Shown: positions 4,013 through 24,400 of the stretch, piece by piece
Numbering within the stretch: position 1 is the first letter of the stretch
Layout of the letters: each line of letters starts with the position of its first letter
Source of the DNA: Thermoproteota archaeon
GTDB taxonomy: Archaea; Asgardarchaeota; Jordiarchaeia; Jordiarchaeales; Freyrarchaeaceae
Reading direction: 5' to 3'
Assembly (NCBI GenBank): GCA_029258835.1
Contig: JAPDJY010000067.1
Location: 1 to 25,048 of the forward strand
DNA length: 25,048 bases
Notes under the pieces: generated by a model
The model's database searches: none
The model's input: the letters and a program-made list of their open reading frames with translations, nothing else
What the model was told of the DNA's origin: nothing
Position numbers and translations under genes: made by a program

Positions 4013-5368
4013 CTACGCTGCTTGTTTTTTTGTTTCGTCTAGGAGTTTTACTACTTTGTGTCCTACGAATGGTAGTTCTGAGACTGACTTGACGAATTCT
4101 ATCTCAGACTCGACTCCAAGCCTCTCCTTAAGCCTCTCCTTAAGCTTAGCCTTGAAGGCCTCGGCATCATCAACCTTATCCCAGTCAACAGCCAACTTCA
4201 TCCTCAAAACGTCCATGGGGCCTGTTGAGTATTTTATCATGGTAAAGTACTCTGTGAATCCGGGGATGTCGCCTAGGACGTTTTCTATGTCTGCTGGGAA
4301 TATTTTCATTCCTTTTATGTTTGCCATGAATGCTTCTCTTCCTAGGAATGATATTCTGGTGTGGGTTCTTCCGCACTTGCACTTCTCCGTTGTGATGTAT
4401 CCTATGTCTTCTGTGCCCCATTTTATTATTGGGGTTGCCTCGGCGAAGAGGTTGGTGACAGTCACCTCCCCTCTTTCGCCCTCGGCGAGCTTCTCGTGGG
4501 TTTCGGGGTCCCTCACCTCGGTCAGGAAGAGGTCGTCGCAGCTGTGGACACCCTCATGGTAGTCGCAGTCACCCCAATACCACAACGGGTCGGCAACACC
4601 GCCAAAATCGTAAATCTTCTCCGAAGGAACACCAGTCTCGTCCTCAAGCCTCTTCTTCACCGCCTTCGTAACTATGTCACCGTAGCCCGTGTCTATAATC
4701 TTCGTGTTGGAGAAGATCTCTTTTGGATCGACTCCGGACTTCTTAGCGGTCTCAATTATGGAGTAGAGTGTGAGGATTGGCCCGCCGTAAACCTCCGGCT
4801 TATATCCTCTCAGCACTTGCATGTGCTTCGCTGAAAGATAGGGCAGAGGGTAGCCGCAGTCTAGGTAAGCGCCGAAGCCTATTATATCCGCTGCGGTGTA
4901 GGCCAGGACGACGTAGCCATGCCACCTAAAACCGGTGAAGTATACCTTAGTCCCTGCCCTGTACCCTCTCCCCCACTTAACCCTGAGATCCTGCTCCACA
5001 GCCATCATTATGTCGTGTTTTGTGTATGCGAATATTGTTGGGATTCCTGTTGTTCCCGTGGAGGCGTTGATTGAAACCACTCTTTCGTCTAGGGGGACGC
5101 ATAGTATGCCTCCGAAGGGGTCCCCGGTCCTGCTCCTCTCCTCCCTCAAGTCGTCCTTGTACAGCATGGGAACCTTCTCGAAGTCCTCGAGCGACTTGAC
5201 GTCGTCGGGCTTCAGGCCGGCCTCGTCAAACCTCCTGCGGTAGAAGGATGAGTAGTGGTAGGCGTAGTCCAGCTGGTGCCTGAGCCTCCTCAGCTGGAGC
5301 TCCCTCAACTCCTCCCTCGCCATCGTCTCAACAGCAGGATTCCAAAACTTACCCCTCTCAACATCCAA
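4013..5368 (-). CDS. Phenylacetate-CoA ligase (PaaK)-family AMP-forming ligase, full length
   Basis: N-terminal ETMAREELRELQ, P-loop ASTGTTGIP, EGERGEVTVTNL, CKCGRTH-x-RI, and C-terminal LPFVGHK retaining the A10 lysine. Confidence 0.88.
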   Translation of the reverse strand: MDVERGKFWNPAVETMAREELRELQLRRLRHQLDYAYHYSSFYRRRFDEAGLKPDDVKSLEDFEKVPMLYKDDLREERSRTGDPFGGILCVPLDERVVSINASTGTTGIPTIFAYTKHDIMMAVEQDLRVKWGRGYRAGTKVYFTGFRWHGYVVLAYTAADIIGFGAYLDCGYPLPYLSAKHMQVLRGYKPEVYGGPILTLYSIIETAKKSGVDPKEIFSNTKIIDTGYGDIVTKAVKKRLEDETGVPSEKIYDFGGVADPLWYWGDCDYHEGVHSCDDLFLTEVRDPETHEKLAEGERGEVTVTNLFAEATPIIKWGTEDIGYITTEKCKCGRTHTRISFLGREAFMANIKGMKIFPADIENVLGDIPGFTEYFTMIKYSTGPMDVLRMKLAVDWDKVDDAEAFKAKLKERLKERLGVESEIEFVKSVSELPFVGHKVVKLLDETKKQAA

Positions 5369-5381
5369 ACAACAACCCTCC

Positions 5382-6422
5382 TTAGAAGACTATTCTCACG
5401 TGGGTTCTTCCGCATCCGCATTCATCTTTGATCAGAGTGACCTTATGATCGGTTTTATACCTTATTAGGGGTGTTGCCTCAGCCCAAAGGTTTGTTATGG
5501 TTAGTAGGCCTTTTTCCCCGGGAGCAGTTGGTTCTCCGGTTTCGGGGTCGACCGTTTCAACTATGAACCCGTCTTCCCATGCGTGAAGCCCGTTCATCTG
5601 GTGACATTCTGAGGCGAAGAAGAGGTTATCCTGTATGTCTAGCATGCATAGATGTGTCCCACCCCACACCTCCTCAAACTCCTTCCTTGTTTTCTCGTCT
5701 AATACTGGGCTGCCGGGTCTAACCCTATGTATGACCACCTTCGTCCCGAACATTTCCTTCGGAGTCTTCCCCTGCTTCTTTGCTTCGTTCACCATGAGCT
5801 TTGCAAAATCGACCATTGTGAGGACTAAATGGGGTTTGAAGAACCCTGTCATATACATTGATCTTGGAAGGTCGAGCATGGGAAGCGTTGCCTCTATTGG
5901 TATGCCCGTGAACGGTATTATGTCTTGAACTGTCCGCCGGCTTGTGAACTGTGCCTCTATGATGCGTCCTATAGCCTCCCACTGGCTTGCCTGAACCTCG
6001 ACTATCTGCCCTCTCCTCAGCCCAGCCATTAACAGGTGCCGAGTTAGGTGGTCCACTAGAACTTCCCTGTCGTTCTCCGTTAGGGCTGTTACGATCACGT
6101 TTCCCTTAACCATCTGCTCTGGAGGATTAAATATCTGCCAAATCTTACTCATCGGCACGCATAACCGTCCTCCGAAGAAGTCCTCATCGGTGACGGCTGC
6201 CGAAAGCTCCTCGCGTGATGTCAAAGGTATTTTCGAAAGGTCGTTTAAACCTTTAATGTCTTCAGGCTTCACCCCCGCGTCACCAAGCTTTTTACGGTAG
6301 AAACGTGAGTTCCAGTAAACATGGCTAACCTGGCGCCTAAGGAGGTCTTCTTGAATGGACTCTATTTCACTTCTAGGCATGGTTTCCACGCTTGTAACCC
6401 ACAAACCCTCCTCACCTGCCAC
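5382..6422 (-). CDS. PaaK-like protein lacking the C-terminal domain and the P-loop; probably non-catalytic
   Basis: ETMPRSEI, ECHQMNGLH, PGEKGLLTITNL, PLIRYKT, and CGCGRTHVRIVF followed by TAA. The P-loop position reads NPPEQMVKG. Confidence 0.8.
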   Translation of the reverse strand: MAGEEGLWVTSVETMPRSEIESIQEDLLRRQVSHVYWNSRFYRKKLGDAGVKPEDIKGLNDLSKIPLTSREELSAAVTDEDFFGGRLCVPMSKIWQIFNPPEQMVKGNVIVTALTENDREVLVDHLTRHLLMAGLRRGQIVEVQASQWEAIGRIIEAQFTSRRTVQDIIPFTGIPIEATLPMLDLPRSMYMTGFFKPHLVLTMVDFAKLMVNEAKKQGKTPKEMFGTKVVIHRVRPGSPVLDEKTRKEFEEVWGGTHLCMLDIQDNLFFASECHQMNGLHAWEDGFIVETVDPETGEPTAPGEKGLLTITNLWAEATPLIRYKTDHKVTLIKDECGCGRTHVRIVF

Positions 6423-8517: not shown

Positions 8518-9813
8518 TTAGACGAATTTCCTTCTGTCCTCTAGTAGTCTTGCACTTTCTGGTATATCTCCTGGGTTCACTATTTCGACTTCAGACTTTA
8601 TCCTCAGGGCCTGCTTAAACTCTTCCTCTAAGATTTTCTTCATTTCTTCGAACTTTGATGGATCCTTGCATTCCACCTTGATCGTCATTACGTCTGTTAC
8701 CCCTGGGCGCTCAACTATTATCTGGAACCTGCCAAGTTCTGGATGTCTTTTCACGACTTCCTCGGCTTGCTTTGGATGTATGAATACGCCTTTAACCTTC
8801 GTTAACATGTCTATTCTTCCTAGGATTCCCATCAGCCTTGCCTCGGTGCGTCCGCACTCGCACTTCTCCACGTTCAGGACGGAAGCATCCCCTGTCCTGT
8901 AGCGTATTAAGGGGAGAGCCTCCCTTTCGAGTGGGGTTGCAACTATTTCTCCTTCCTCCCCTGGCTCGACAGGCTCCAAGGTGTTCGGGTCGATTATCTC
9001 TATGAGGTAAAACTCCTCGTTAATGTGCATTCCATTATGGTACTGGCACTCACGCGACATAACTCCTAGCTCGGCTACGCCGTAAGCGTCGAAAAGCTCC
9101 ATGTCAAAGGTTTCCTCAAGGTACTTCCTCAGGGAGGGTGGGAGAGGCTCTGCTCCGCACAGTCCAACCCTTAACTTCAAATCCTTCTTGGGGTCTATGC
9201 CCATCTTCTTCGCTTCCTCAGCCAGCCTAGCGAGGAAGCTCGGTGTTCCAGCGTATATTGTTGTCCCAAGAGATTTCATGAATTCAAGCTGCATCCTGCT
9301 CTCACCCGGACCAGCCGGTATGATCGTTAGGCCTGCACTCTCGGCAGCCATGTGGACGAAGAAGCCAGCGGGCATAAAGTGGTAGGAAAGGGTTATTTGT
9401 ATGACGTCGCCTGGCTGAGGCTCGTAAACGTGCGTTTTAAGGAGGATCCTTCTAGTTATTTCGAGGTCTTTCTCCGTGTAGGGTTCAAAAATGGGCCCTG
9501 GGGAAATGAATACCAAGCGTAGCTTCTCCTTCGGGACGGCTAGGAATTCCCCATATGGGGGATGCTGCCTCTGGTTAGCTACAAGCTCGTGCTTACTTGT
9601 GAAGGGAACCTTCTTGAAGAAGTCGTCTAAGCTTCTTATGTCGTCTGGTTTCACGCCAGCCTCGTCAAACTTCCTGTGATAGTAGGGTGAGTTCTCGTAC
9701 GCATACCTCACCATAGCCAGTGCCTTCTTCTCCTGCAGGCGTCTCAGTTCCTCCCTACTCATTGTCTCGGTTTCAAACAGTGGCCTACCCAAAATCCCTC
9801 CTCCTAAAGCCAC
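8518..9813 (-). CDS. Phenylacetate-CoA ligase family protein, SPGP-loop subtype
   Basis: ETMSREEL, FISPGPIFEP, GTPSF, GAEP, DAYGVAE, PLIRYRTGD, CECGRT, GRIDMLTKVKGVFIHP. Confidence 0.88.
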   Translation of the reverse strand: MALGGGILGRPLFETETMSREELRRLQEKKALAMVRYAYENSPYYHRKFDEAGVKPDDIRSLDDFFKKVPFTSKHELVANQRQHPPYGEFLAVPKEKLRLVFISPGPIFEPYTEKDLEITRRILLKTHVYEPQPGDVIQITLSYHFMPAGFFVHMAAESAGLTIIPAGPGESRMQLEFMKSLGTTIYAGTPSFLARLAEEAKKMGIDPKKDLKLRVGLCGAEPLPPSLRKYLEETFDMELFDAYGVAELGVMSRECQYHNGMHINEEFYLIEIIDPNTLEPVEPGEEGEIVATPLEREALPLIRYRTGDASVLNVEKCECGRTEARLMGILGRIDMLTKVKGVFIHPKQAEEVVKRHPELGRFQIIVERPGVTDVMTIKVECKDPSKFEEMKKILEEEFKQALRIKSEVEIVNPGDIPESARLLEDRRKFV

Positions 9814-10935: not shown

Positions 10936-11113
10936 AAATGTTTGGTGGGTGTTTGTGAGTGCTGGTTTGGCCACGGGGTGGCCTATGGGGTGGAGTCTTC
11001 GGATGGGGGGCTCCGGGGTTACCCCGAATGCTCCATCAGGGCTTAGCCCGATGATGGGGAAACGCCTGACAGACCAAAACACACATCTACCTATAAAAAC
11101 CTATCAAGCGTGA
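10936..11113 (+). mobile_element. Probable non-autonomous remnant of an IS200/IS605/IS607 element (3' end of tnpB, omegaRNA-like region)
   Basis: Abrupt GC-rich, hairpin-dense segment. The + frame encodes LRMGGSGVTPNAPSGLSPMMGK...stop, which I recall as resembling the tail after the last RuvC motif of archaeal TnpB. Boundaries are approximate. Confidence 0.45.
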
Positions 11114-11212
11114 ACCCCAACTTACACCACCACTAACTGCAACAACCTCGGGAACTCTCATACCTCTGGAGAAGTGGAGAGAGGTTTTACTAGTGGGGTG
11201 TCCTCTGGTACA

Positions 11213-11321
11213 AGGTTCCTGACGTCTGGAAGAACGAAAAATACCAATTTTCTGGATAACTTAATTCCAGCTTTCGTCTTCTTTTCACCGTCAAAGAGGA
11301 AGTCAGATATACCTGTTAGGC
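11213..11321 (-). repeat. Long imperfect palindrome with a GCCTAAC/GTTAGGC core; degenerate attC-like site
   Basis: Nested arms AGGT/ACCT, CTGAC/GTCAG, AAGAACGAAA/TTTCGTCTT and CTGGA/TCCAG, with GTTAGGC at 11315-11321. Confidence 0.35.
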
Positions 11322-11594
11322 GAGTGGGTTATTTCATTTTCCATAATTCGTAGCTTTTCCCTCTTTCACACGTCCACCAGTCTCCAATTTTCCTCTGGTT
11401 TCACCTTGCCGTTTAACATGTTTTGCGGCTTCGTCAGAGATGGCGGTGGGCTAGCCTCCGGCATGAGCGTTCTTTAACGGGCTGAAACATCGACTAGCTT
11501 CAACGATTGGTGGCCGATTTCTTACTGGAAAGTAAAACTTGAGGCCAAATACGGTTAGTCTAGAAACCTTTTAGAGAGGATAAACTCTTTTAAT

Positions 11595-13229
11595 ATGGAT
11601 CTGGAGGGAGGTGGAATGGTTAAGGGCTTGTCCATGGAGGATCATGTCCTTAAGAGCAGCTTTAGGATGGCTTATGGATTGGAGGCTTACGCCGCCACCA
11701 GTAGTGTGGCTGAGATAATGTCCGAGCTTGTGAAGGCTAGCTTGGGGCCGAGAGGGAGGGTTAAGCTCCTCGTCGACAAGTACGGGAACTTTAAGGTGAC
11801 AGGGAGCGGGGTGGAAATCCTTAAGGAAGTTGAGGCGAAGCACCCTGTCGCTAAAACCCTCGTTGAAATAGCTAAAACGCAGAACAGGAACGTCCGTGAC
11901 GGAGTTAAGAGGGCTGTCATAATGGCTGGCAAACTGGCTGAGGAAGCCTACAAGCTGATAGGACGTGAGGGGTTGCATCCGAACATCGTCGTGAGGGGAT
12001 ACCTAGCTGCAACTAAGATGGCTGTGAAGTTTCTAAGGGAAGCAGCAACCCCCGCCAGGTCGGACGGCGGACTACTCTTCAGAGCTGCTCTAACATCGGT
12101 CAACGGGTTCAATGGAGGAGGACACCTTGCAGACATAGCGGTCAGGGTGGTTAAAAGCGTCTCCGGCGAGGTGGAGGACAAGGTTCTGGTGAGAGTTAAG
12201 GAGGGAGGAAGCGTCCTAGACTCGGAATTCGTCGACGGGGTTATAATAAATAAGGAGGTTGCAAACCCGAACATGCCCAGGCGGGTGGAGGAGGCGAGGA
12301 TACTCGTCGTCAAGCAGAAGCTCTACATAGAGAAGAGGTTTGAACATGCCGACTATGCTGTCCCGGAGCTTGTCTTAGATGATGCTGGAGACCTTAAAGC
12401 TGCACTTAACACTAGGAGGGAGATGGCTTTGAGGTGGCTTAAAGGCATACTTGAGAGCGGTGCGAACGTGGTAGTCAATTATTATGGTATAGACGGGATT
12501 TTAGAGGAGTTGATGGCGAGGCATGGGATCCTAGCAGTAAGGAGGGCGGATGAGGAATCCTTTAAGAGGCTGGCTGAGGCTTGCGGGGCGAAGATAATTG
12601 GGGACGTCGGCAGGGTCGCCCCCAGCGACCTAGGGTATGCAAGGGTTGTTGAGGAGAGAAAGGTTGGAGGAGGGGCGAGAGCGGATAAGATGGTTTTCGT
12701 TAGAGGGTGCAGGAACCCTAAGACGGTGAGCGTGCTTGTTAAGGGTGGAACGTGGGAGGTCGCTGAGGAAGCTGAGAGGATGCTGTGGAAAGCCATTCGA
12801 GCCGCCTATAACGTGGTTAGGGATGGATACGTGGTCGGAGGAGGGGGAGCTATAGAGGAGGAGGTTGCAATGAGACTAAGAGATTACGCTGAAGGAGTGG
12901 AGGGACGAGAGCAGTTCGCTATTAAAGCGTTCGCCAACGCGCTAGAGGAGGTTCCGAGGGTTTTAGCACTCAACGCTGGGGCGAACCCCGTCGACGTCAT
13001 AGCAGAGTTGCGTGTAGCCCATAGGAGTGGAGACCTATGGGCGGGGGTTGACGCTCTCTCAGGCCGCGTGAGGAACATGTTTGAAGCAGGCATAGTGGAG
13101 GCTGCAACGGTTGTGGAGCACGCCTTAAAGGTTGCAGGTGAAACCACCGTTGCACTATTAGGGTTGGACGCAATATATGTAACCAAGGGGAGGGTTTTAC
13201 CCGGCGGTAGACCGGAAGAAAGCGAGTGA
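11595..13229 (+). CDS. Divergent group II chaperonin (thermosome/TCP-1 family) with degenerate ATPase motifs
   Basis: SLGPRG, HPVAKTLVE, LHPNIVVRGY, DSEFVDGVII, MPRRVEEARI, VGGGGA, AFANALEEVPRVLALNAG. GDGTT is replaced by RDGVK, TNDG by TGSG, and ERSLHDA by ERMLWKA. Confidence 0.9.
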   Translation: MDLEGGGMVKGLSMEDHVLKSSFRMAYGLEAYAATSSVAEIMSELVKASLGPRGRVKLLVDKYGNFKVTGSGVEILKEVEAKHPVAKTLVEIAKTQNRNVRDGVKRAVIMAGKLAEEAYKLIGREGLHPNIVVRGYLAATKMAVKFLREAATPARSDGGLLFRAALTSVNGFNGGGHLADIAVRVVKSVSGEVEDKVLVRVKEGGSVLDSEFVDGVIINKEVANPNMPRRVEEARILVVKQKLYIEKRFEHADYAVPELVLDDAGDLKAALNTRREMALRWLKGILESGANVVVNYYGIDGILEELMARHGILAVRRADEESFKRLAEACGAKIIGDVGRVAPSDLGYARVVEERKVGGGARADKMVFVRGCRNPKTVSVLVKGGTWEVAEEAERMLWKAIRAAYNVVRDGYVVGGGGAIEEEVAMRLRDYAEGVEGREQFAIKAFANALEEVPRVLALNAGANPVDVIAELRVAHRSGDLWAGVDALSGRVRNMFEAGIVEAATVVEHALKVAGETTVALLGLDAIYVTKGRVLPGGRPEESE

Positions 13230-13345
13230 TAGACGGATTCTTCAAAGAGTATGTAGATAAAATATTTTACTTAGTTTTTGGAAGGCGGCATACGTAAAAA
13301 ATATAGAGAAGGTTGACACTTTAAACTTTGGAGAAATGGTAGGAT

Positions 13346-13969
13346 GTGGCCGCGTTGCTTAGCTTATCCAATGAGGTTACGATTAAGAGGCACTGCAACG
13401 TTGACGACGTTAAGGAGAAGGGGATTGATAAGGGGATCGGGGCTTTCTCCGGGAGCGCTGAGAAGGAAAAAGAAAAGTTGATCTCCGTTATCGAGAAGGG
13501 AGGATACGTGACGATAGCCTACACGCTGGAGAACGTGATAGTGGGGTTTATATCGCTGGACAAGTGGACTATTCCAGCGGGAAGGGTTGTTTTCGAGACA
13601 ATATATGAGCTTGTGGCTGAGGTTAGTAAGGAGTGGAGGGGGAGGGGAATAGCGTTCGCCATGCTCACGTTCACGTTCGAAGACCCGTTCTTCGACGACA
13701 AAATAGTGATCGCAAGGGGGATATCCTCTTACTGGGATCTAACCATGCTTGAGAAGGAAACATACAGGAGGCGGCTCCTCAACGGGTTAAAGGCGGCGGG
13801 TTTCGCCGACTGGAGCGATAACAACCCATTCGGCGGAGAGTTCCTAGCGGTGAGGATAGGAAGCAAAGCTGACCCCTACCTTGTGGAGCACCTCGACGAG
13901 GTGTTCGCCAGGCAGGCAAGCACCATATACGAAACGGAAACAGTCCAGATCTTCGGGGACAAGTTTTAA
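13346..13969 (+). CDS. acuA: AcuA-like GNAT protein lysine acetyltransferase
   Basis: YELVAEVSKEWRGRGIA (motif A), DDKIVIARGISSYWDL, YRRRL and LAVRIGSK are collinear with Bacillus AcuA segments as I recall them. Confidence 0.72.
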   Translation: MAALLSLSNEVTIKRHCNVDDVKEKGIDKGIGAFSGSAEKEKEKLISVIEKGGYVTIAYTLENVIVGFISLDKWTIPAGRVVFETIYELVAEVSKEWRGRGIAFAMLTFTFEDPFFDDKIVIARGISSYWDLTMLEKETYRRRLLNGLKAAGFADWSDNNPFGGEFLAVRIGSKADPYLVEHLDEVFARQASTIYETETVQIFGDKF

Positions 13970-14180
13970 CAGGAACCCGGCTGGAAACGTTAAACCTACC
14001 AAATGGAGGGGTGAATGCACACTGCGAGGCACCTCTAAAGGAAGGAGGCTTCCTATGGTGTTCACTATCTCGCCGACGTGAGGGGTGCTTCTATTTTGCA
14101 TGTTCGAAAATTTTAGGATGTGCGAGACGGGCTACACTACAATTGTTAGGAGTTTCTGGTAGAGGTTGATGACGGCAATG

Positions 14181-14198
14181 CGGAAAAAATATATATAG
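14181..14198 (+). promoter_or_regulatory. BRE/TATA-like promoter of the lipoate ligase gene
   Basis: CGGAAAAAATATATATAG upstream of GGAGGTG and the start. Confidence 0.5.
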
Positions 14199-14226
14199 TT
14201 TCCTAATTAATAGAGAATTTTTGTAA

Positions 14227-15339
14227 ATGACAATAGGAGGTGGGGTTTTGGAGGAGTGGAGGTACGTAACAAGAGACATCGACATGGTTGATACTGCTGC
14301 TATACCTCCGGCGGTCATTCAAGCTGTAAGTAAGGGTTCTGCCCCCAGTACCGTTGCGGTGGTTGGATTCACGGTTCCAGGTATAAGCATAGGTTACTTC
14401 CAAGACATAGATACTGAGGTGGATTACGAGAAGGCTAAGGGGCTTGGAATACAGGTCATTCGGAGGTATGGGGTTGGAGGGGGAACGATCTTTGTGGATC
14501 CTAAGGGTAGCATGGCCATGTTCATGGTTTTCAATAAGGACTTCTTTAAAGATATGGATGAGGCGTTCGTGAAGGTTGGAGAGGCCATAGCAGACTTCTA
14601 TAAGAAGGTTGGCGTAGAGGGAGCGTGGTATAAGCACATAGGCGACGTGAAGGTTGGAGATAGGAAGATAACAGGGTTCGGCTTCGTTACGGTCGGCAAC
14701 CTGATGGTGCAGAACACCATAATAGGGGTGGGCGACATAAATGTTAAATTGTTCATGCAGGCGGCGAAGATCCCACCGGAGAAGTTTCAGGACAAGAAGG
14801 CGAAGGACGTAGCCGAGTGGGTGACAAACATTCAGAAGGAAACCGGGAGGCTGCCAAGTAAGGAGGAAGTCCAGAAAGCAATGAAGGAGGCGCTTGAAGA
14901 ACATCTTAACATAACTCTGACGCCAGGGGAGCTAACCGAGGAAGAGGAAAACATAAGGCAATCATTCCGGAAGATGGTTCTTTCCGAGGAGCACACCTTC
15001 GCCTTCTCAAGTGCACGCAGGTTCCCAACCGTCCCTTCAGGATACAAGTTCGGCTGGGCGAGGTACAAGGCGCGCAAGCTCCTAGTAGCCCATGCCATGA
15101 TAGATAGGGAAGGGAGAATATCAGATGTCATGTTCTCGGGGGACTTCTACTGCAGCCCTGCTCAGTACCTCAAAGACATAGAGGAAAACCTTAAGGGAGT
15201 TGAGGCAATAGACAGGGAGGTAATCCTGGGAAAAGTGAAGGAGATTTACAGCAGACCTGACTGGCAGATACCCATGGTCGACGCAGAAGACTTCGTTGAA
15301 GCCTTGAGAAGAGCCGTGGAGAACGCTCTGGAAAAATAA
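14227..15339 (+). CDS. lplA: Lipoate-protein ligase A family, catalytic domain plus C-terminal accessory domain
   Basis: ISIGYFQD, VIRRYGVGGGTIFVD, GDVKVGDRKITG, C-terminal MFSGDFY. The true start may be the TTG at 14248. Confidence 0.85.
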   Translation: MTIGGGVLEEWRYVTRDIDMVDTAAIPPAVIQAVSKGSAPSTVAVVGFTVPGISIGYFQDIDTEVDYEKAKGLGIQVIRRYGVGGGTIFVDPKGSMAMFMVFNKDFFKDMDEAFVKVGEAIADFYKKVGVEGAWYKHIGDVKVGDRKITGFGFVTVGNLMVQNTIIGVGDINVKLFMQAAKIPPEKFQDKKAKDVAEWVTNIQKETGRLPSKEEVQKAMKEALEEHLNITLTPGELTEEEENIRQSFRKMVLSEEHTFAFSSARRFPTVPSGYKFGWARYKARKLLVAHAMIDREGRISDVMFSGDFYCSPAQYLKDIEENLKGVEAIDREVILGKVKEIYSRPDWQIPMVDAEDFVEALRRAVENALEK

Positions 15340-15619
15340 GGGGAACCACCCCCCACTATTTTTTAGCTTCACCCGGGATCAACCCGGAAATGTACATTAC
15401 GAGCTAGGTTTTTAATTAGTCCTCTTAAAAACATGTTAGAGGGATCCTTCAAAAATGACGGGTGGAAGTCTTGGAAAAATTCACTAGGTTTATGGCAGCT
15501 CCACGTTCGAGGCTGGGCTTCATCCCGTCTACTAAAGCCGGTCGGAGGCACCGTTGAAACGCGACATTCTCGGCGATGTTCCGGTAAAATGTAAAAAAGG
15601 GTTAATGCTACTTAGTTAA

Positions 15620-15958
15620 GTGGTGTTCACGATGCTCGGTGTGTACCTTGATCTTAGAGCGGACGAAGACTGGATTAGGCTTGTTGAAGCTTTCACGAGG
15701 AAGCTGAGGCTACGCGTTCCGGGCGTCGTTAAGGTGGTTGCTCTCGCCAGCCCTGAGGAGAGGGTCTACGATAGCAACGTCCTAGTGGTTGTGGAGGAGG
15801 AAGAGGAGCTAATAGAAAGAAGGGTGGTTGACGCAGCCATCGAAGCTGAGGAGGAAACAGGCATGCACGGGCAGCTAAGCCCCATAACCTGCACCATCAA
15901 AGAACCACTACTGGAAAGGTTTATTGGCGGGTTTACAGTAGAGGTTGAACACTTATGA
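15620..15958 (+). CDS. Divergent MNT-fold protein, putative antitoxin
   Basis: VVKVVALASPEERVYDSNVLVVVE occupies the position of GS...DxD; C-terminal GQLSPI; ATGA overlap with the HEPN gene. Confidence 0.55.
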   Translation: MVFTMLGVYLDLRADEDWIRLVEAFTRKLRLRVPGVVKVVALASPEERVYDSNVLVVVEEEEELIERRVVDAAIEAEEETGMHGQLSPITCTIKEPLLERFIGGFTVEVEHL

Positions 15959-16323
15959 GTGTGGCTAAGTCTAGGGTCCTGATGGGTGAGGCTAGAAAGG
16001 ACGTTGAGATAGGCTGCTACGGTAAGGCCGTTAGCGCAGCGTACTTCGCCCTTAGAATGGCCGTGGAGAGGTACCTTGAGAGGCTTGGAGCGCCCTTCTC
16101 CAAGAAAGACGATAAGCTGGCTAATACGATGCGTAGCTTGGGGTTAAAGGAGGTTTCATACGCTATGAGGGTTCTATTCCAAGCGAGGAAGAGGGCGGAC
16201 CATGGCAGCAAGTTCTTCACTAGGAGGGAGGCTGAGGAGTTGGTGGCTATGGCAGAGGAGGCGTGGAGGAGAATTCTTGAAGCGCTCAGGGAGAGAGAAG
16301 CTCGAGAGAGAGGGGGAACATGA
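15955..16323 (+). CDS. HEPN domain protein (UPF0332-like)
   Basis: YGKAVSAAYFA, LFQARKRADHG (RX4H), FTRREAEELVAMAEE. Confidence 0.8.
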   Translation: MSVAKSRVLMGEARKDVEIGCYGKAVSAAYFALRMAVERYLERLGAPFSKKDDKLANTMRSLGLKEVSYAMRVLFQARKRADHGSKFFTRREAEELVAMAEEAWRRILEALREREARERGGT

Positions 16324-16388
16324 TAGTACTGTATTTGAGCTTTGCATGCTGGCGCTGATTACTGCGACGATGAGGTAGTGGAGGATGT

Positions 16389-17297
16389 TTACTCCCCTTC
16401 TTTTAGGAGGCTTAGCTTCTTTAGGGTTTCTTTGAGTTTTTCTATTTGCTGGCTGGAGAGGTTTGGAAGTGGTTTCCTGACCGTCGGGTTGATCGGTTTT
16501 CCAGTCAGCTTCATGGCGTTTTTTATTATGGCTGGCAGGTACTCTGTGGGGGCCAACGTGAGAAGTGGGAGGAGCTTTGTCGCGTCAGGAAGGAGAGTGC
16601 GCGCCTTCTCAAGGTCTCCTGACTTGTACGCCTCGTATATCCTTATTGCCGGCTTGGGATCAATATTTGATGTTCCAAAGATCATCCCTTTCGCCCCGGC
16701 TTCCATCGAGGCTTGCATGGTTAGCTCCGAGCCGGGGAAGACTGCGAAGTCTTCGGGGACGAGCTCGAGAACCCTCATCGTGTGCTGGGGGTCGGTCACC
16801 GTGTCCTTTATGCCGACTATGTTTTCGACCTCTGCGAGCTTAGCGACAGTTTCAGGCTTAATGTCGAAGTTTGTGACGGCGGGGAAGTTGTATATTAGCA
16901 GGGGGAGCGAGGTTGCTTCCGCCAGCCTAACGTAGTACTCATATGCCATGTCGTCGGTGACGGGGAAGTAGGATGGTATTATGGCTATCAGGGCATCTGC
17001 CCCTATACGCTCCGCTCTCCGGGCTAGTTTAGCGGCAACCCTGCAGCTGTGATGGCTCACCCCAACGATCACAGGAACCCTTCCGCCAGCCTCGTCGACA
17101 ACGACCTCTGCAACCCTGCTTCGCTCCTCCTCGGAAAGGTAGGGAAACTCCCCCGTGCTTCCAAGACAGAAAACACCGTGAACACCTTTCTTTATTAAAT
17201 AGTTAACATGCCACCTTAAGGCATCCTCGTCCAGCTCCTCTTCTTCGGTTAGGGGGGTTACCAACGGGGGAATGACGCCGCTTAAACTCATAGGCAA
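16389..17297 (-). CDS. Dihydrodipicolinate synthase / N-acetylneuraminate lyase family aldolase
   Basis: GVIPPLVTP, GSTGEF, IYNFP, and NIVGIKDT with the Schiff-base Lys. Confidence 0.9.
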   Translation of the reverse strand: MPMSLSGVIPPLVTPLTEEEELDEDALRWHVNYLIKKGVHGVFCLGSTGEFPYLSEEERSRVAEVVVDEAGGRVPVIVGVSHHSCRVAAKLARRAERIGADALIAIIPSYFPVTDDMAYEYYVRLAEATSLPLLIYNFPAVTNFDIKPETVAKLAEVENIVGIKDTVTDPQHTMRVLELVPEDFAVFPGSELTMQASMEAGAKGMIFGTSNIDPKPAIRIYEAYKSGDLEKARTLLPDATKLLPLLTLAPTEYLPAIIKNAMKLTGKPINPTVRKPLPNLSSQQIEKLKETLKKLSLLKEGE

Positions 17298-17559
17298 GCC
17301 TCCAAGAGAAGGGTTGAAAATGACGAATTTATAGTTTCCTGTAATGGGGAAGACGCCTCCTCATTTCCCGGCGAACCCTGCTTACATGGCACCAAGCCCC
17401 CTTCCAGGAACGAGTAGAATTCCCTAGAAAAATTGCTTTGATCCTCTTAAGAAAGAGGGCGTCTGCTAAGATCTTTTCTCGGAGGGAGGGTAGGCTGATG
17501 GAAGGGGGAAGGAAGGGTTTATAGGGGGTTAGATGCATAGTTTCAGGTTTGGTGGAGGG

Positions 17560-18156
17560 ATGATGGTGAACATTTTCGTTGTCGGATTGGGCGGTCAGGG
17601 AACCATAATGTTTTCGAAGATACTATCTACGGCGCTTTTAGAGACGGGTTGCAACTTGATCACCAAGGAGACGACTGGCTCAACGCATAGGGATGCCCCC
17701 GTAACGTCCGAGATAAGGGTTGGCCCTAACGTAAGGTCTCCTGGGATAATGGATGGGGAAGCCGACGTCGTAGTCGGGTTAGAGCCCATGGAGTGTCTGA
17801 GGTTTGCAAGGAAGTATAGCCCCTCGGCAACGGTCTTCGTTAACACGCACCCCGTGTACCCGCCCTTCACGATAAGCCGGAGACCATACCCTGAAGTAGG
17901 GGAAATACTGGGTGTTCTCAAGGAGCTTACCAGCAGGGTGGTGGCGTTGGATGCCACCAAGTTGGCGGAGGACGTTGGAGGCGGCTCCGCGGCGAACATG
18001 ATCATGTTAGGAGTGCTCGTCGGCTCAGGCATACTAGATCTAGATCCTGGGAAAGTTGAGGAGGTTATTTCTAGGCTTGCCCCGAAGGGGGCTGAAAAGC
18101 TTAACGTTGACGCGTTTAGGGCTGGCCTCCGTGAGGCTGAAAAAATTTTTAGGTGA
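17560..18156 (+). CDS. iorB: Indolepyruvate:ferredoxin oxidoreductase beta subunit
   Basis: VGLGGQG, ETTGSTHRDAPVTSEIR, ADVVVGLEPMECLR, AANMIMLG. ATG at 17560 or 17563 follows GGAGGG; the ORF track starts at 17533. Confidence 0.88.
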   Translation: MMVNIFVVGLGGQGTIMFSKILSTALLETGCNLITKETTGSTHRDAPVTSEIRVGPNVRSPGIMDGEADVVVGLEPMECLRFARKYSPSATVFVNTHPVYPPFTISRRPYPEVGEILGVLKELTSRVVALDATKLAEDVGGGSAANMIMLGVLVGSGILDLDPGKVEEVISRLAPKGAEKLNVDAFRAGLREAEKIFR

Positions 18157-20105
18157 TGTGGATGAGAGAGGAAAGGTATGTTAGGAGAACCTTCCGCAAG
18201 TTCACCACTTACGACGTTGTAAGGGATGAGCCGGGGACCGTGGTCCTCCTAAACGGGAATGAAGCTGTTGCAAGAGGGGCAATAGAGGCTGGGGTGACCG
18301 TGGCGACAGGCTACCCGGGTTCCCCTGCAACCTACATTCTTGAGAACCTTGCCTTAGCAGCTGAAAGATACGATATTCACGCAGAGTGGTCCACCAACGA
18401 GATGGTCGCTTATGAGGTGGCCTTCGGGGCAGCTGCGACGGGCGCCAAGGCTATAGCGTCCATGAAGAATGTCGGTATGAACTGGATAATGGATCCCTTA
18501 AGGAATTCCGTTGGGCTTGAGATTAAGGGTGCTCTGGTCGTGGCCGTGGTTGATGACCCCGGGTCTGACGTGACGACCAACGAGCAGGATAGCCGCTACC
18601 TCGCCCGCTTCGCCGAGATCCCCGTGTTCACTCCCGCCACCATCCAGGAGGCTAAGGACCTGACGGTTGAAGCCTTCAGATTCTCTGAGGAGCTTTCGAT
18701 ACCTGTAGTCGTCTGCCCGACGAGGCAGCTGGTCTATGCTAGGGGGAACGTTACCCTCGGCCCCGTAAGAAGAGCGGAGCGGAAGGCTCCAAGGCTTGAG
18801 AAAAACTTCCGGTTCGTGACCGGGCTAGGGGTAATGGCCGTTTCACGCCACAGGAAGCACCATGCCCAAACCCTTAAAAGGCTTGAAGGAATGGTTGATG
18901 GGTTGAGCTGGAACGAGCTGAAGCTTGACGGGGACGAGGAGGTTGGGGTAATAGCGAGCGGGCTGCCATACTCGTACATGGCTGAAGCCTTAGAGGCTTT
19001 ACCATTCAGAGATAACGTCGCATGGCTCAAGGTGGCGACGCCATACCCTCTCCCAAAGGGGAAGGTTTCCAAGCTCCTTAGAAGCGTCAACAGGGTTCTC
19101 GTGCTGGAAGAGGTGGAGCCGTTCATAGAGGAGCAAGTCATGGCGCTGTCGGCGACGCTCAGCGAGCACGCTGAGATCGTTGGGAAGAACACCGGGCATG
19201 TTCCCATAGGAGAGCTCGACAGGAAGCTGGTCGAAGAGGTTCTCTGCCGGGTTTACGGGGTGCCCTACAAGCCGAGGGTGCCGCCGGAGCATGTTGCCAA
19301 GGCGAAGCAGGCTGCGTCGAAGCTGCCCTTCAGACCGTTCGTAAGCTGGTGTCCGGGATGCCCGCACCTCGCATCATATTATAGCCTTAAGAAGGCCGTA
19401 AGGAAGCTTTTCGGCAAAGACTACAATGTTCACGGGGAGATAGGATGCTACCAGATGGCGATACTTCCGCCGGTTGAGATGGTTGACACGTGCATTTGCA
19501 TGGGGTCGTCGACCGGAGTCGGGTGCGGCGTCTACCATGCAGGGGCGCCAGGCAAGAACATAGCTACTATGGGGGACAGTTCGTTCTTCCACGCGTCCAT
19601 ACCAAGCTTGATAAATGCCGTGTATAACAAGGCGGACCTGACTGTGGTTGTCCTCGACAATAGGACGACGGGGGCCACGGGGCATCAACCTCACCCGGGA
19701 GCATTCGGGGTTACAGCTACGGGGGAGCCAACTAAGATGCTTGACGTGGCGGAGGTGGCGAGGGCTTGCGGGGTGGACCTGGTGGAGGTGGTTGACCCTT
19801 ACAACTTGAGGGAGACGCAGGAGGCGATGGAGAGGGCGCTCAGCCATAAGGGGGTCTCTGTCGTCGTCTGCCGTAGGGTTTGCGCGGTCATAGCGGTAAG
19901 GCAGAAGGGAGGAATGACCTCGCCGGAAATTAAGAAGTACTATGTGGACGGGGATGAATGCACAAACTGTAGGAAGTGCATGGAGCTAGGTTGCCCGTCA
20001 CTCTACGTGGAATCTAAGGAGGCTAAGCCAAAAATAGATAGGCTAACATGCGTTGGGTGTGGCGTCTGCAGTCAGATATGCCCGGTGGGTGCGATAAAAA
20101 CGTGA
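18153..20105 (+). CDS. iorA: Indolepyruvate:ferredoxin oxidoreductase alpha subunit
   Basis: GNEAVARGAIEAG, GYPGSP, EWSTNE, EQDSR, CPGCPH, TPP motif GDSSFFH ... LDN, and two C-terminal CxxCxxCxxxCP-type clusters. Confidence 0.93.
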   Translation: MMWMREERYVRRTFRKFTTYDVVRDEPGTVVLLNGNEAVARGAIEAGVTVATGYPGSPATYILENLALAAERYDIHAEWSTNEMVAYEVAFGAAATGAKAIASMKNVGMNWIMDPLRNSVGLEIKGALVVAVVDDPGSDVTTNEQDSRYLARFAEIPVFTPATIQEAKDLTVEAFRFSEELSIPVVVCPTRQLVYARGNVTLGPVRRAERKAPRLEKNFRFVTGLGVMAVSRHRKHHAQTLKRLEGMVDGLSWNELKLDGDEEVGVIASGLPYSYMAEALEALPFRDNVAWLKVATPYPLPKGKVSKLLRSVNRVLVLEEVEPFIEEQVMALSATLSEHAEIVGKNTGHVPIGELDRKLVEEVLCRVYGVPYKPRVPPEHVAKAKQAASKLPFRPFVSWCPGCPHLASYYSLKKAVRKLFGKDYNVHGEIGCYQMAILPPVEMVDTCICMGSSTGVGCGVYHAGAPGKNIATMGDSSFFHASIPSLINAVYNKADLTVVVLDNRTTGATGHQPHPGAFGVTATGEPTKMLDVAEVARACGVDLVEVVDPYNLRETQEAMERALSHKGVSVVVCRRVCAVIAVRQKGGMTSPEIKKYYVDGDECTNCRKCMELGCPSLYVESKEAKPKIDRLTCVGCGVCSQICPVGAIKT

Positions 20106-20230
20106 AGAAAACGTTTAATAACTCTTTTAATAACTTTAACTTTCCCTAGAGGGCTTAATTCCTCCCTTCCTTTGCTCCTTAAGGGTTAAGTGGAAAGTGT
20201 TACTTTATTATAAAGCGCTGGGGGGTTGCG

Positions 20231-21331
20231 TTGGCTAAGACGTGCGTTGTTTATACTGATGAGCTTTCAAGGTTTGAGTTTCCTCCCATGCATCCTCTTA
20301 GGCTCCACCCTTGGATGGTGTTCATTGAACAACTGAAAAAGAAGGTGGGGGCAGGAGGAAAAGAGGTGCTCCTCTTAGAAGCTGAGCCTGCATGCGAGGA
20401 AGACCTGCTCAGGGTTCACAGTGAGAGCCATGTCTCGATAATTAAGGCTTTGAGCAGGGGGGTGGATGTGAAGGTTGTGGGTTCCTTCGGGGTTACAAGC
20501 TACCTTCCCCCCGACACGCCTGTGGTTCCGGGGATCTTCGACCTCATGCTTTACTTGGTTGGAGGGGCAATCCAGGCGGGGAGGATGGTTTGGAGGGGGC
20601 GTGTGAGGAACGCCATGACTTTTGGAGGGCAGCATCACGCCTCAACCTACTACTCTTCAGGATTCTGCTACTTCAACGATATTGCGGTGATGATAGAGTG
20701 GTTAAGGGAGAAGGCTAACCTTAAGAGGGTTGCAATATTTGACTTCGACGGACACCATGGGAACGGGACACAGTTCATATACAACGAGGATCCAAACGTC
20801 CTTTACATTTCATTTCATCAGACACACGACCCCTTTGGAGAGAAGATATATCCGGGGACGGGATGGCTAAAGGACATAGGGGCGGGGGAGGGGAGAGGTT
20901 TCAAGGTTAACCTTCCCCTGCCAGTAGGTACCACCGACGAGGACTACGAGTACGCCTTAAACGAGGTCTTCAAGCCTCTGGTAGAGGAGTTTAAACCTGA
21001 GCTGCTCGTTGCAAACGGCGGCTTCGACGCCCACAAGAATGATGCCCTCCTAAACCTAAGCTTAACCCTCCACGGGTACCTCAACGTAGCTAAGACGCTC
21101 GTCGAAACCTCCGAGAAAGTTTGCAGCGGGAGGTTAGTATTGTTCACAGGTGTAGGCTACAGTCCGGAAGTTGTGGAGAGGGGGTTAAACGTGATGCTGA
21201 AAGCGTTACTAGGGAAAACGGTAGAAATAAGGGAGGAGAAAACAGGGAGAGGAAAGGTGAAGGAGGAAATTGTTAACAGAGTTGCAGAGCTCAAAAATAC
21301 ATTAAAGGACTACTGGAGCTGTTACAGGTAG
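20231..21331 (+). CDS. acuC: Zn-dependent deacetylase, AcuC/HDAC family
   Basis: HPLR, GGQHHA, SGFCYFND, DFDGHHGNGTQ, YPGTG, GFDAH, GVGY. Confidence 0.88.
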   Translation: MAKTCVVYTDELSRFEFPPMHPLRLHPWMVFIEQLKKKVGAGGKEVLLLEAEPACEEDLLRVHSESHVSIIKALSRGVDVKVVGSFGVTSYLPPDTPVVPGIFDLMLYLVGGAIQAGRMVWRGRVRNAMTFGGQHHASTYYSSGFCYFNDIAVMIEWLREKANLKRVAIFDFDGHHGNGTQFIYNEDPNVLYISFHQTHDPFGEKIYPGTGWLKDIGAGEGRGFKVNLPLPVGTTDEDYEYALNEVFKPLVEEFKPELLVANGGFDAHKNDALLNLSLTLHGYLNVAKTLVETSEKVCSGRLVLFTGVGYSPEVVERGLNVMLKALLGKTVEIREEKTGRGKVKEEIVNRVAELKNTLKDYWSCYR

Positions 21332-22352: not shown

Positions 22353-23762
22353 TTAGCTATGCTGCAACTTTTCACGTTTACCTTTGATTTTACCCCATTC
22401 GACTAGTGCTTTTAGGGCTTTAACCGCCCTTCTGGGAGTCGGGTAAACCGGGATCTTTGCTTCTAGAAGGATTTCATGGGATTTCTGGGAGAATGCCCTT
22501 GAGGCGAGCCAGCATACTATCATTGGCTTACCGTAGGAGCGCACAGTTTCCGCGGCTTCAACTATGTCTCTCGCTAGGGTTATGGCTGGCTCATCGACGG
22601 CTGTTGTGACCGTTAGAAGCAGGGCGTTAATCCTTGTTTCCCCGCATAGCACCCTGAGGCACTCCTTGAAGAGGGAGATGTTTAAGATTATCTGCCCGGT
22701 TACGTCTAGAGGGTTCTTTGCGGATGCGAAGCTGGGGAGGATCCCCCTAAGCTTGTTCTCTGCGTCGCCGTCTAGCTCGGGAACCTCCAAGCCATACTCC
22801 TCGCACAGGTCAACCATGACCGAGCACATGGCTCCACTAGTTGAAATTATAGCTACACCGTTACCTGACGGCGCGGGCTGCCAAGCTAAAGCCATGGGGA
22901 AATCGAAGAAGTCCTCAAAGTCGTCCACGCCCAGGACGCCTAGCTTCTTGAATAGGGGGGTGTAGTCTTCGGGTGGCTTAAGCCCCGTATGCTGCTTAAC
23001 AAGCTTCCTTGCCCTCCTAGAGCGCGCACTCCAGAAAACCACGACTGGTTTACCGCTTGAAATAGCCCGAGACACCGCACGGGAGAAGCCTTCAACGTCT
23101 TTGATGGATTCTAGGAAAACCGTTATGACGCTTGTGTGCTCGTCCCCTGCTAGAAAATCTAGAAAGTCTGGTGTTTCTAGGTCGGCTTCATTTCCTGTTG
23201 AAACGAAGCGGCTCACGCCCAGCTTGAGACTCCACATGTGGGTGAGGGCTGAGCCGCCGATGGCTCCACTTTGTGAGATCACGGAGACGTTACCTCTTAG
23301 CGGAGCATCGGGGATCATAATGCTTGGACTGAACGTTGCACAGAGGTTAGCTGGAGTGGAAACTACGCCTTGAGAGTTCGGCCCGAGAATACGGATTCCT
23401 GCACTCCTCGCAAGCTCAACGACTTGTTCTTGGAGGTCTACGTTTCCGGCTTCAGCGAAGCCCGACGAAAAGATAATTGCCGCCTTAACTCCTTTCTCGG
23501 CGCAGTCCCTGATTATCCCTGGAACGGTTGACGCGGGAGTTAGGATGCACGCTAGGTCCACGTCGCTTGGAACATCCTTAACGGAAGGGTAGCATTTCAT
23601 GCCTAAAACTTCGCTTTCCTTTGGGTTAACAGGGAAAACGTTGGTGAAGCCATGCTCTAGGAGGAGGCGGAGGACGATGCTTCCAAGCTTAGCTGGATTC
23701 GACGAAACACCCACAACGGCGACCGAGCGAGGGTTAAGGAGGAGGCTAACAGCTTCAGACAA
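22353..23762 (-). CDS. Second ADP-forming acyl-CoA ligase alpha-subunit homolog, with a divergent His loop
   Basis: LLNPRSVAVVG, GPNSQG, SQSGA, TGNEADL, NPLDVTG. The His loop reads WSARSRRARKLVKQHTGLKPPED. Confidence 0.88.
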   Translation of the reverse strand: MSEAVSLLLNPRSVAVVGVSSNPAKLGSIVLRLLLEHGFTNVFPVNPKESEVLGMKCYPSVKDVPSDVDLACILTPASTVPGIIRDCAEKGVKAAIIFSSGFAEAGNVDLQEQVVELARSAGIRILGPNSQGVVSTPANLCATFSPSIMIPDAPLRGNVSVISQSGAIGGSALTHMWSLKLGVSRFVSTGNEADLETPDFLDFLAGDEHTSVITVFLESIKDVEGFSRAVSRAISSGKPVVVFWSARSRRARKLVKQHTGLKPPEDYTPLFKKLGVLGVDDFEDFFDFPMALAWQPAPSGNGVAIISTSGAMCSVMVDLCEEYGLEVPELDGDAENKLRGILPSFASAKNPLDVTGQIILNISLFKECLRVLCGETRINALLLTVTTAVDEPAITLARDIVEAAETVRSYGKPMIVCWLASRAFSQKSHEILLEAKIPVYPTPRRAVKALKALVEWGKIKGKREKLQHS

Positions 23763-23812
23763 GGCCTATCACCTACAAAAATTTGATAAGAAGATGTATT
23801 TAAGTATCTGTT

Positions 23813-24400
23813 GTGGAGGAGAAATTATTGAGTGAGGAAGCCCTTGCCTACCGTCAAATGGTTCTAAACGTTGAGGAGGGGGCCAAGCTCCTCGAAGATA
23901 AGAGAAGAGAAGTGGAGTCGTCTTTTCTTCTTAAAGCGGTTAAAGTAAGGGAGTTTAACAGGGAGAAGGACGGGAGGGCATTCATCGAACTTTTCAACAA
24001 GGTTTTTCAAGCGTCACCTGACCCCTACCTGCCCCTTAAAGGGGAGGAAGTAGACGAGATCCCCGAGGAAGGGTTTTTCGTAGCTGAAATTAACGGGAGG
24101 ATTGTAGGGTTCATAATAGCGTTCGTAACTGGCGGCGGGAAGATTGGTGTGATCGGCGTTATAGGTGTTGACCCGGACTATCGCAGGATGGGAATAGCGA
24201 CCGCTCTCGCCGTTAAAGCGGCAGAATACCTCATAGAGAAGGGAGTAGAAAAAGTGGTTACTGAGGTTTACGTAGACAACATTTCATCCTATAACCTGAT
24301 AAAGTCTTTCGGGTTCAAGGAAACGGCGATTGCGGTTTACGGTATAATGGAGGCAGCATGTAAAAGGCACCCGATTAGGACACGAAGTGCCACACGCTAA
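23813..24400 (+). CDS. GNAT family N-acetyltransferase (RimI-like C-terminal part)
   Basis: FFVAEINGRIVGF, GVDPDYRRMGIATAL, DNISSYNLIKSFGF. The likely start is the TTG at 23828. Confidence 0.85.
   Translation: MEEKLLSEEALAYRQMVLNVEEGAKLLEDKRREVESSFLLKAVKVREFNREKDGRAFIELFNKVFQASPDPYLPLKGEEVDEIPEEGFFVAEINGRIVGFIIAFVTGGGKIGVIGVIGVDPDYRRMGIATALAVKAAEYLIEKGVEKVVTEVYVDNISSYNLIKSFGFKETAIAVYGIMEAACKRHPIRTRSATR

Follow-up and report, generated by a model that had tools for sequence, protein, structure and literature searches.

Can AcuA, a bacterial acetyltransferase that switches off the acetyl-CoA synthetase AcsA by acetylation and that the literature presents as specific to AcsA and to Firmicutes (PMC11255334, PMC13121692), function in an archaeon in which AcsA is not found, and if so, on what would it act and what would reverse its mark? 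The question is raised by the 25,048-nucleotide contig JAPDJY010000067.1 (hereafter the window, numbered from 1 to 25,048), part of a metagenome-assembled genome of a jordiarchaeial Asgard archaeon (GCA_029258835.1, here G000; 2.72 Mb in 91 contigs, 94.7% complete, 6% contamination). Positions 13346-13969 encode an acetyltransferase of the GNAT type, P0001, and positions 20231-21331 a zinc-dependent deacetylase. A sequence-only reading of the window had put these two forward as a candidate reversible lysine-acylation switch gating nearby AMP-forming coenzyme A (CoA) ligases. Lysine acetylation writers are poorly known in archaea, and a bona fide AcuA in archaea without AcsA would mean that the family has other targets. 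On balance we favour a reading in which P0001 is a functional, divergent AcuA that acetylates the A10 lysine of an AMP-forming ligase other than AcsA.

Results

Family, fold and catalytic residues of P0001

Routine annotation places P0001 loosely. Pfam gave GNAT matches below threshold only (E about 0.007), a word-indexed protein search returned nothing but P0001 itself, and in NCBI the homologs from archaea are called 'hypothetical' or simply 'N-acetyltransferase'. When P0001 was compared as a single sequence with all PDB sequences at E values up to 10, two matches were obtained, namely Bacillus subtilis AcuA (9g7f_C, 6e-4) and Exiguobacterium AcuA (2q04, 1e-3). Searched exhaustively with HMMER, 1.84 billion representatives yielded 107 relatives, one at 49% identity and the remainder at about 27-44%. 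A profile made from 50 homologs matched the two AcuA structures at 1e-60 (2q04) and 2e-60 (9g7f) over residues 8-206 of 211, against 4e-6 for the next-best GNAT.

The AlphaFold2 model of P0001, built on the homolog alignment, has a predicted local distance difference test score (pLDDT) of 92.8. Foldseek returned 2q04 and 9g7f as its top matches, with template modelling (TM) scores of 0.76-0.80 over 197-206 columns, compared with 0.54 or less for other GNATs, and the model includes the C-terminal extension that the AcuA fold adds to the GNAT core. The sequence-only reading had called this protein an AcuA-like GNAT; given the profile match, the fold and the retained catalytic residues described below, it is almost certainly a member of the AcuA family.

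In B. subtilis AcuA, E102 is the general base and W140 the oxyanion and acetyl-CoA tryptophan, both needed for acetyl transfer (PMC11255334). Pairwise alignment pairs these residues with E92 and W130 of P0001. W130 is shared by all 50 homologs and E92 is conserved at 90% or more, and D141, R108 and the RGRGIA acetyl-CoA loop are also retained in the alignment with the B. subtilis protein. Hence the acetyl-CoA-dependent chemistry of P0001 looks intact, as judged from these positions.

Phylogeny, distribution and domain fusions

In the family tree P0001 clusters with P0003 (Bathyarchaeota, 49% identity) and P0004 (from an archaeon) with a Shimodaira-Hasegawa (SH) support of 0.988, and a Methanomicrobia protein is the next neighbour of this clade (support 0.745). 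A profile search of 400 Asgard genomes gave a full-length AcuA match in G000 only (1.9e-53), the other matches being confined to the generic GNAT core at about 1e-6, and a single-protein search of 40 relatives gave one generic GNAT match and no ortholog. The presence of a full-length AcuA in one of 400 genomes suggests that the gene is lineage-specific within Asgard archaea and was probably acquired horizontally. The AcuA of a second strain (contig L067, ENA ERZ1742239) is 98.6% identical, and the genes around it follow the same order.

Several relatives carry the AcuA domain within larger proteins. It is fused to a Hist_deacetyl domain in P0030, P0068 and P0036 (the last from Ktedonobacteraceae), to an AcuB-like CBS pair in the metagenomic P0040 (387 amino acids), and to GAF, sigma-54 activator and helix-turn-helix (HTH) domains in the metagenomic P0092 (719 amino acids). 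The fusions to Hist_deacetyl or CBS domains tie the AcuA family to the acu system. The fused AcuC-AcuA forms sit in the bacterial part of the tree, apart from P0001.

Gene contexts of archaeal AcuA homologs

The context of P0004, from the clade of P0001, is the most telling for a target. On its contig (L010) the P0004 gene lies 82 nucleotides after one PaaK-like gene and is convergent with the gene of an ANL ligase. Beyond the latter come a second PaaK-like gene (the best match there to the window ligase lig1, with the tail LPHKVYKL) and a thermosome gene, in that order. P0004 is thus found among three AMP-forming ligases, two PaaK-like and one ANL. The ANL ligase (L010:10657-12183, minus strand) ends in YKKVRKVVIKE just before the expected A10 motif PX4GK, so that it lacks the acceptor lysine.

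On a Methanomicrobia contig (L007:1-4762) a 9-nucleotide spacer separates the AcuA homolog from a 623-residue fusion of acetyl-CoA hydrolase/transferase and GNAT, and an AsnC regulator and a gene for the alpha subunit of an ADP-forming acyl-CoA synthetase (ACD) lie divergently upstream. In Bathyarchaeia the homolog lies in an Hdr/FlpD-like cluster, and an ANL ligase is present at a distance of 4 kb. Overall, an AMP-forming ligase occurs within 5 kb of AcuA in two of three other archaeal contexts and at 3.5 kb in the window. These contexts point loosely to acyl-CoA metabolism. With regard to the synteny of GNAT, deacetylase and ligases that the earlier reading had called for, the ligase part is borne out by P0004, but no histone deacetylase (HDAC) gene was found near the AcuA homolog in six other contexts (four archaeal, two bacterial; 6-10 kb of flank on each side).

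Candidate targets

AcsA was not found in the 94.7% complete assembly, the best score against TIGR02188 being 195 bits compared with a cut-off of 725. The target of P0001 must therefore differ from that of the Bacillus enzyme. Three PaaK-like AMP-forming ligase genes had been claimed for the window, and all three are there (4013-5368, 5382-6422 and 8518-9813). The first, lig1, has its A10 lysine, K438, in the non-canonical context LPFVGHK; of 50 aligned relatives, 47 share the lysine. Its best PDB match is 2-hydroxyisobutyryl-CoA synthetase, and it remains below the cut-offs of the PaaK models (194 bits against 700 for NF041878; 189 against 646 for TIGR02155). The second consists of the N-terminal domain and, lacking the C-terminal domain, has no A10 lysine. 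The third, lig3, is of the three the closest to a solved PaaK, yet it has no lysine at A10 (its tail reads ...GDIPESARLLEDRR) where 47 of 50 relatives keep it. The claim that lig1 is the sole paralog with the target lysine thus holds within the window but not for the genome, in which three PaaK-like ligases (on C15, C55 and C53) and nine FadD-like ligases elsewhere also have it. A complex prediction for lig1 and AcuA, both entered as alignments, scored 0.00, a value that is no evidence on binding either way.

The nine canonical ANL ligases of the genome are all FadD-like, and every one carries PX4GK with basic residues after it, closer to the AcsA motif SGKIMRR than is GHKVVK of lig1. G000 furthermore has four Sir2 (sirtuin) genes, two of which lie 1.3-2.3 kb from FadD-like ligases. 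The order FadD-like ligase (PX4GK), alpha/beta hydrolase, Sir2 is repeated at C56:7724-11384 and C33:13814-18483 (L085, L086). With four sirtuins and nine ligases in 2.7 Mb, such a repeated order is unlikely to arise by chance; it suggests sirtuin-based control of FadD-like ligases, and the sirtuins make a credible alternative eraser system.

That P0001 acts on an AMP-forming ligase of some kind is a proposition towards which we lean slightly. The best lead is a PaaK-like ligase, given that the AcuA gene of the closest clade lies among three AMP-forming ligases; the nine FadD-like ligases and the four sirtuins are equally good candidates. Taken singly, lig1 is an unlikely target, and one of the nine FadD-like PX4GK ligases a doubtful but slightly better one.

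The zinc deacetylase and its paralogs

The deacetylase gene begins 125 nucleotides after iorA, and its product matches Hist_deacetyl (PF00850) at 7.5e-78. The His-His dyad, DFDGHHGNG (DxH), GFDAH (with the second zinc-binding Asp) and the Tyr of GVGY are all present, in agreement with the claim of a zinc deacetylase directly downstream of iorA. Between the two strains the gene shows 102 synonymous versus 66 non-synonymous codon differences, a ratio that indicates purifying selection. From its motifs we take the product to be a working zinc deacetylase.

The label 'AcuC-like' can be kept at the level of the family and of the class-I-type GGxHHA signature, but not as a clade placement. The protein carries GGQHHA (class-I/AcuC-type) without RPPGHHA, and JGI names its 41-46% identical homologs AcuC, itself a class I-like bacterial deacetylase of sub-cluster 2c/2d (PMC11532494). 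Among PDB entries it scores about as well with HdaH (3.5e-41) as with single HDAC6 domains (about 1e-36) and HDLP (1e-35), which leaves class I and class II unseparated.

G000 contains seven Hist_deacetyl loci, five of them full length, compared with one to four in its relatives. No ortholog of the window deacetylase was found in 12 relatives, the best match being 41% identical and thus no better than its own paralogs; by this comparison it is an additional paralog particular to this lineage. The best match of the AcuA-fused deacetylase domains is the paralog C10:21434-22603 (223-261 bits), and the window copy ranks fourth of the seven (150-153 bits). The neighbours of the C10 paralog (Usp, HD, Trm112 and P-type ATPase genes) are uninformative. 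The closest homologs of the window deacetylase outside this lineage (42% identity, Bathyarchaeia; L088:6280-8098 and L089:6243-8077) lie directly downstream of the cell-division gene cdvA.

Arrangement of the AcuA and deacetylase genes

A distance of 6.3 kb separates the two genes, which belong to different transcription units; in between lie a toxin-antitoxin pair, a DHDPS gene on the opposite strand and iorBA. Comparison with the second strain gave 96% identity over 11001-20109 (99% for the thermosome paralog, AcuA and LplA) and about 80% from 20225 onward, that is for the deacetylase, ACD alpha and small GNAT genes. This change inside the iorA-deacetylase spacer suggests a boundary of recombination, which would place the AcuA gene and the deacetylase in segments with different histories. 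A genome of the same family (G001) was also compared for synteny; its iorA is 39-40% identical, too distant for a joint gain of the two genes to be read from it. HDACs are present in 12 of 12 relatives and in the bathyarchaeial AcuA genome, so that co-occurrence at the level of whole genomes is a test without power.

Gene map of the window

The open reading frame listing and Pfam/NCBIfam scans of the window reproduced all the gene calls of the sequence-only reading (Table 1), including both ACD alpha subunits (610-2025 and 22353-23762), the lipoate ligase (14227-15339) and the second GNAT (23813-24400). There is no CBS domain anywhere on the contig and hence no acuB there, as had been stated.

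The second ACD alpha gene and the small GNAT gene (22353-24400) are divergent, 50 nucleotides apart, and the pair is kept in the second strain. The combination is reminiscent of the domains of bacterial Pat, but the GNAT itself is generic. We considered the two as a split Pat-type acetyltransferase and rejected this, the GNAT being YpeA/RimI-like. Two ADP-forming ACD alpha genes were counted in the window alone, a count that covers the window.

Table 1. Features of the window (25,048 nucleotides)
Feature	Positions	Strand	Remarks
ACD alpha subunit (ADP-forming acyl-CoA synthetase)	610-2025	-	
Glutamate dehydrogenase	2621-3886		
lig1, PaaK-like AMP-forming ligase	4013-5368	-	A10 Lys K438; candidate target
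PaaK-like, N-terminal domain only	5382-6422	-	13 nt upstream of lig1
lig3, PaaK-like ligase	8518-9813	-	No Lys at A10 column
Thermosome paralog	11595-13229	+	116 nt upstream of AcuA gene, same strand
AcuA-family GNAT, P0001	13346-13969	+	207 aa
Lipoate-protein ligase, LplA/B-like	14227-15339	+	257 nt downstream of AcuA gene
MNT/HEPN toxin-antitoxin pair	15620-16323		
DHDPS	16389-17297	-	
iorB-iorA, indolepyruvate:ferredoxin oxidoreductase	17533-20105	+	Transcription unit preceding deacetylase
Spacer between iorA and deacetylase	20110-20224	none	Apparent strain-level recombination break
Zn-dependent deacetylase, Hist_deacetyl family	20231-21331	+	366 aa
Second ACD alpha subunit	22353-23762	-	Divergent from small GNAT
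Small generic GNAT, YpeA/RimI-like	23813-24400	+	Neither AcuA-type nor Pat-type

Discussion

A model for P0001

We propose a model where P0001, from a small archaeal AcuA clade (Bathyarchaeia, the P0004 archaeon and Methanomicrobia), would most likely acetylate an AMP-forming acyl-CoA ligase at its catalytic A10 lysine with acetyl-CoA, in the manner of Bacillus AcuA. Acetylation at this lysine would shut the ligase off. The target would be a ligase other than AcsA, either lig1 or one of the nine FadD-like enzymes, and the eraser would be among about nine candidates, of which five are full-length HDAC paralogs and four are sirtuins. The family, fold, catalytic residues, distribution and gene contexts of P0001 are shown by the analyses above; we infer from them its activity on protein lysines, its target and its eraser.

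A number of observations weigh against this model. H139 of the B. subtilis enzyme is replaced by Tyr129 in P0001 and E135 by Gly125, and the D82 loop is deleted. H139 is needed in B. subtilis for the acetyl-phosphate (Pta-like) route and is dispensable for acetyl-CoA-dependent transfer (PMC11255334), so that with Tyr129 in its place the acetyl-phosphate route may be absent from P0001. The acceptor motif of lig1, GHKVVK, differs from SGKIMR of AcsA, and lig1 orthologs of 56-63% identity occur in Lokiarchaeia and Freyarchaeota, groups in which AcuA was not found. One of the four archaeal AcuA contexts (L049, with ribosomal and LSM genes) is without any acyl-CoA enzyme. Finally, the AcuA gene differs between the two strains by 4 synonymous and 3 non-synonymous codon changes, too few to read purifying selection from.

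Alternative explanations

The sequence-only reading paired the AcuA-like GNAT with the deacetylase at 20231-21331 as a dedicated writer and eraser gating lig1 at K438, possibly with aryl-acetyl-CoA as donor. Both genes are indeed extras of this lineage (no ortholog in 40 and 12 relatives, respectively) and keep their order in the second strain; with seven HDAC loci per 2.72 Mb, a post hoc calculation puts at about 3% the chance of finding one within 6.3 kb of any particular gene. AcuA-HDAC fusions exist in bacteria, lig1 is the only window ligase with an A10 lysine, and the AcuA homolog on L010 lies among PaaK-like ligases. Set against this are the 6.3 kb of unrelated genes between the two, the preference of AcuA-fused domains for the C10 paralog, the lack of an HDAC within about 6-10 kb (the reach of each locus) in the six other AcuA contexts, the association of the deacetylase's closest outside homologs with cdvA in place of ligases, and the fall in strain identity, 96-99% up to iorA and 80% from the deacetylase on, which leaves the two genes on opposite sides of the apparent break. 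We consequently regard the complete circuit as quite improbable, and the narrower claim that the window deacetylase is the dedicated eraser of AcuA as improbable too, if marginally less so. A broader version, in which the archaeal AcuA clade as a whole was retargeted to PaaK-type acyl- or aryl-acetate-CoA ligases with an HK acceptor motif and a lineage-specific HDAC-type eraser was recruited nearby, also seems rather unlikely; if true, it would give the first demonstrated case of an adenylate-forming ligase under the control of an archaeal writer.

Two further explanations leave lig1 and the window deacetylase aside. P0001 could act on the FadD-like fatty-acyl-CoA ligases, with sirtuins reversing the mark as in CobB/Pat-type systems. 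The nine FadD-like ligases have PX4GK with basic residues, near the SGKIMRR of AcsA, two of the four Sir2 genes lie close to such ligases in a repeated gene order, and in Bacillus, too, a sirtuin is reported to act on AMP-forming ligases (PMC11619455). However, neither a FadD-like ligase nor a sirtuin gene is near the AcuA gene, the neighbours of its closest homolog are mostly PaaK-like and include a single ANL ligase that ends before the A10 motif, and adjacency of sirtuin and ligase genes is uninformative as to the acetyltransferase responsible for the mark. We hold this explanation to be possible but doubtful. The other is that the archaeal clade has left ANL ligases altogether and acetylates an ACD alpha subunit, the thermosome paralog, a lipoylation component or a small molecule. 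It would fit the absence of AcsA from the assembly and the loss of several AcsA-contacting residues from P0001, and it would suit the varied contexts (Hdr/FlpD in Bathyarchaeia, ACD alpha and the acetyl-CoA hydrolase-GNAT fusion in Methanomicrobia, ribosomal/LSM genes on L049) as well as the position of the window gene between the thermosome paralog and LplA. Yet the lysine-activating Glu and the Trp are among the residues invariant, or nearly so, across the family, the HDAC and CBS fusions point to protein deacetylation partners, and two of three other archaeal contexts have an AMP-forming ligase within 5 kb, the window having one at a distance of 3.5 kb. This makes it an unlikely explanation, and the acetylation of an AMP-forming ligase other than AcsA remains the reading that we prefer. 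P0001 would then be a concrete candidate for controlling the ATP-costly activation of acids in peptide-fermenting Asgard and Bathyarchaeia lineages.

Comparison with known systems

P0001 resembles the AcuA proteins of Bacillus and Exiguobacterium in its full-length family match, in its fold and in its length (207 versus 210 residues), and it keeps the Glu, the Trp, D141, R108 and the acetyl-CoA loop. It differs in being only 21-23% identical to them and in the altered H139, E135 and D82 loop positions. In Bacillus, acuA, acuB (CBS-ACT) and acuC form one operon next to a divergent acsA, an arrangement that G000 does not share. The acu operon has been described as a Firmicutes feature (PMC13121692), whereas the present gene has an archaeal host, no acuB on its contig, no adjacent acuC and no acsA found in the assembly. 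The literature searched yielded no description of an AcuA from archaea; the new element here is a clade of archaeal AcuA proteins in genomes that lack the canonical target.

In the AcuC-AcuA fusions of Chloroflexota (Ktedonobacteraceae) and other bacteria (P0030, P0036, P0068) the C-terminal domain is homologous to P0001, and these proteins show that an AcuA-type writer and an HDAC-type eraser can work as one unit. In G000, by contrast, the writer and the deacetylase are separate genes 6.3 kb apart, and the fused deacetylase domain resembles the C10 paralog more than the window copy.

Alba is a known substrate of archaeal Pat. Sulfolobus Pat (3f8k) reached an E value of only 0.36 against the AcuA profile. 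The GNAT lysine acetyltransferases described from archaea are Pat of Sulfolobus and Pat1 and Pat2 of Haloferax volcanii, with glycerol kinase as one substrate (PMC12607858). In contrast to P0001 they belong to other GNAT subfamilies, and their known substrates are not acyl-CoA ligases.

In Rhodopseudomonas palustris, Pat and KatA together with LdaA and SrtN act on BadA, HbaA and AliA. The writer there is Pat-type (an ACD-like domain joined to a GNAT) and the targets are canonical ANL ligases with PX4GK, in place of the AcuA-type writer and PaaK-type ligases considered here. Nevertheless, the reversible acetylation of the A10 lysine of aryl-CoA ligases including BadA by a Pat-type writer (PMC8388817) offers a precedent, with an HDAC-type and a sirtuin-type eraser that are both encoded away from the targets.

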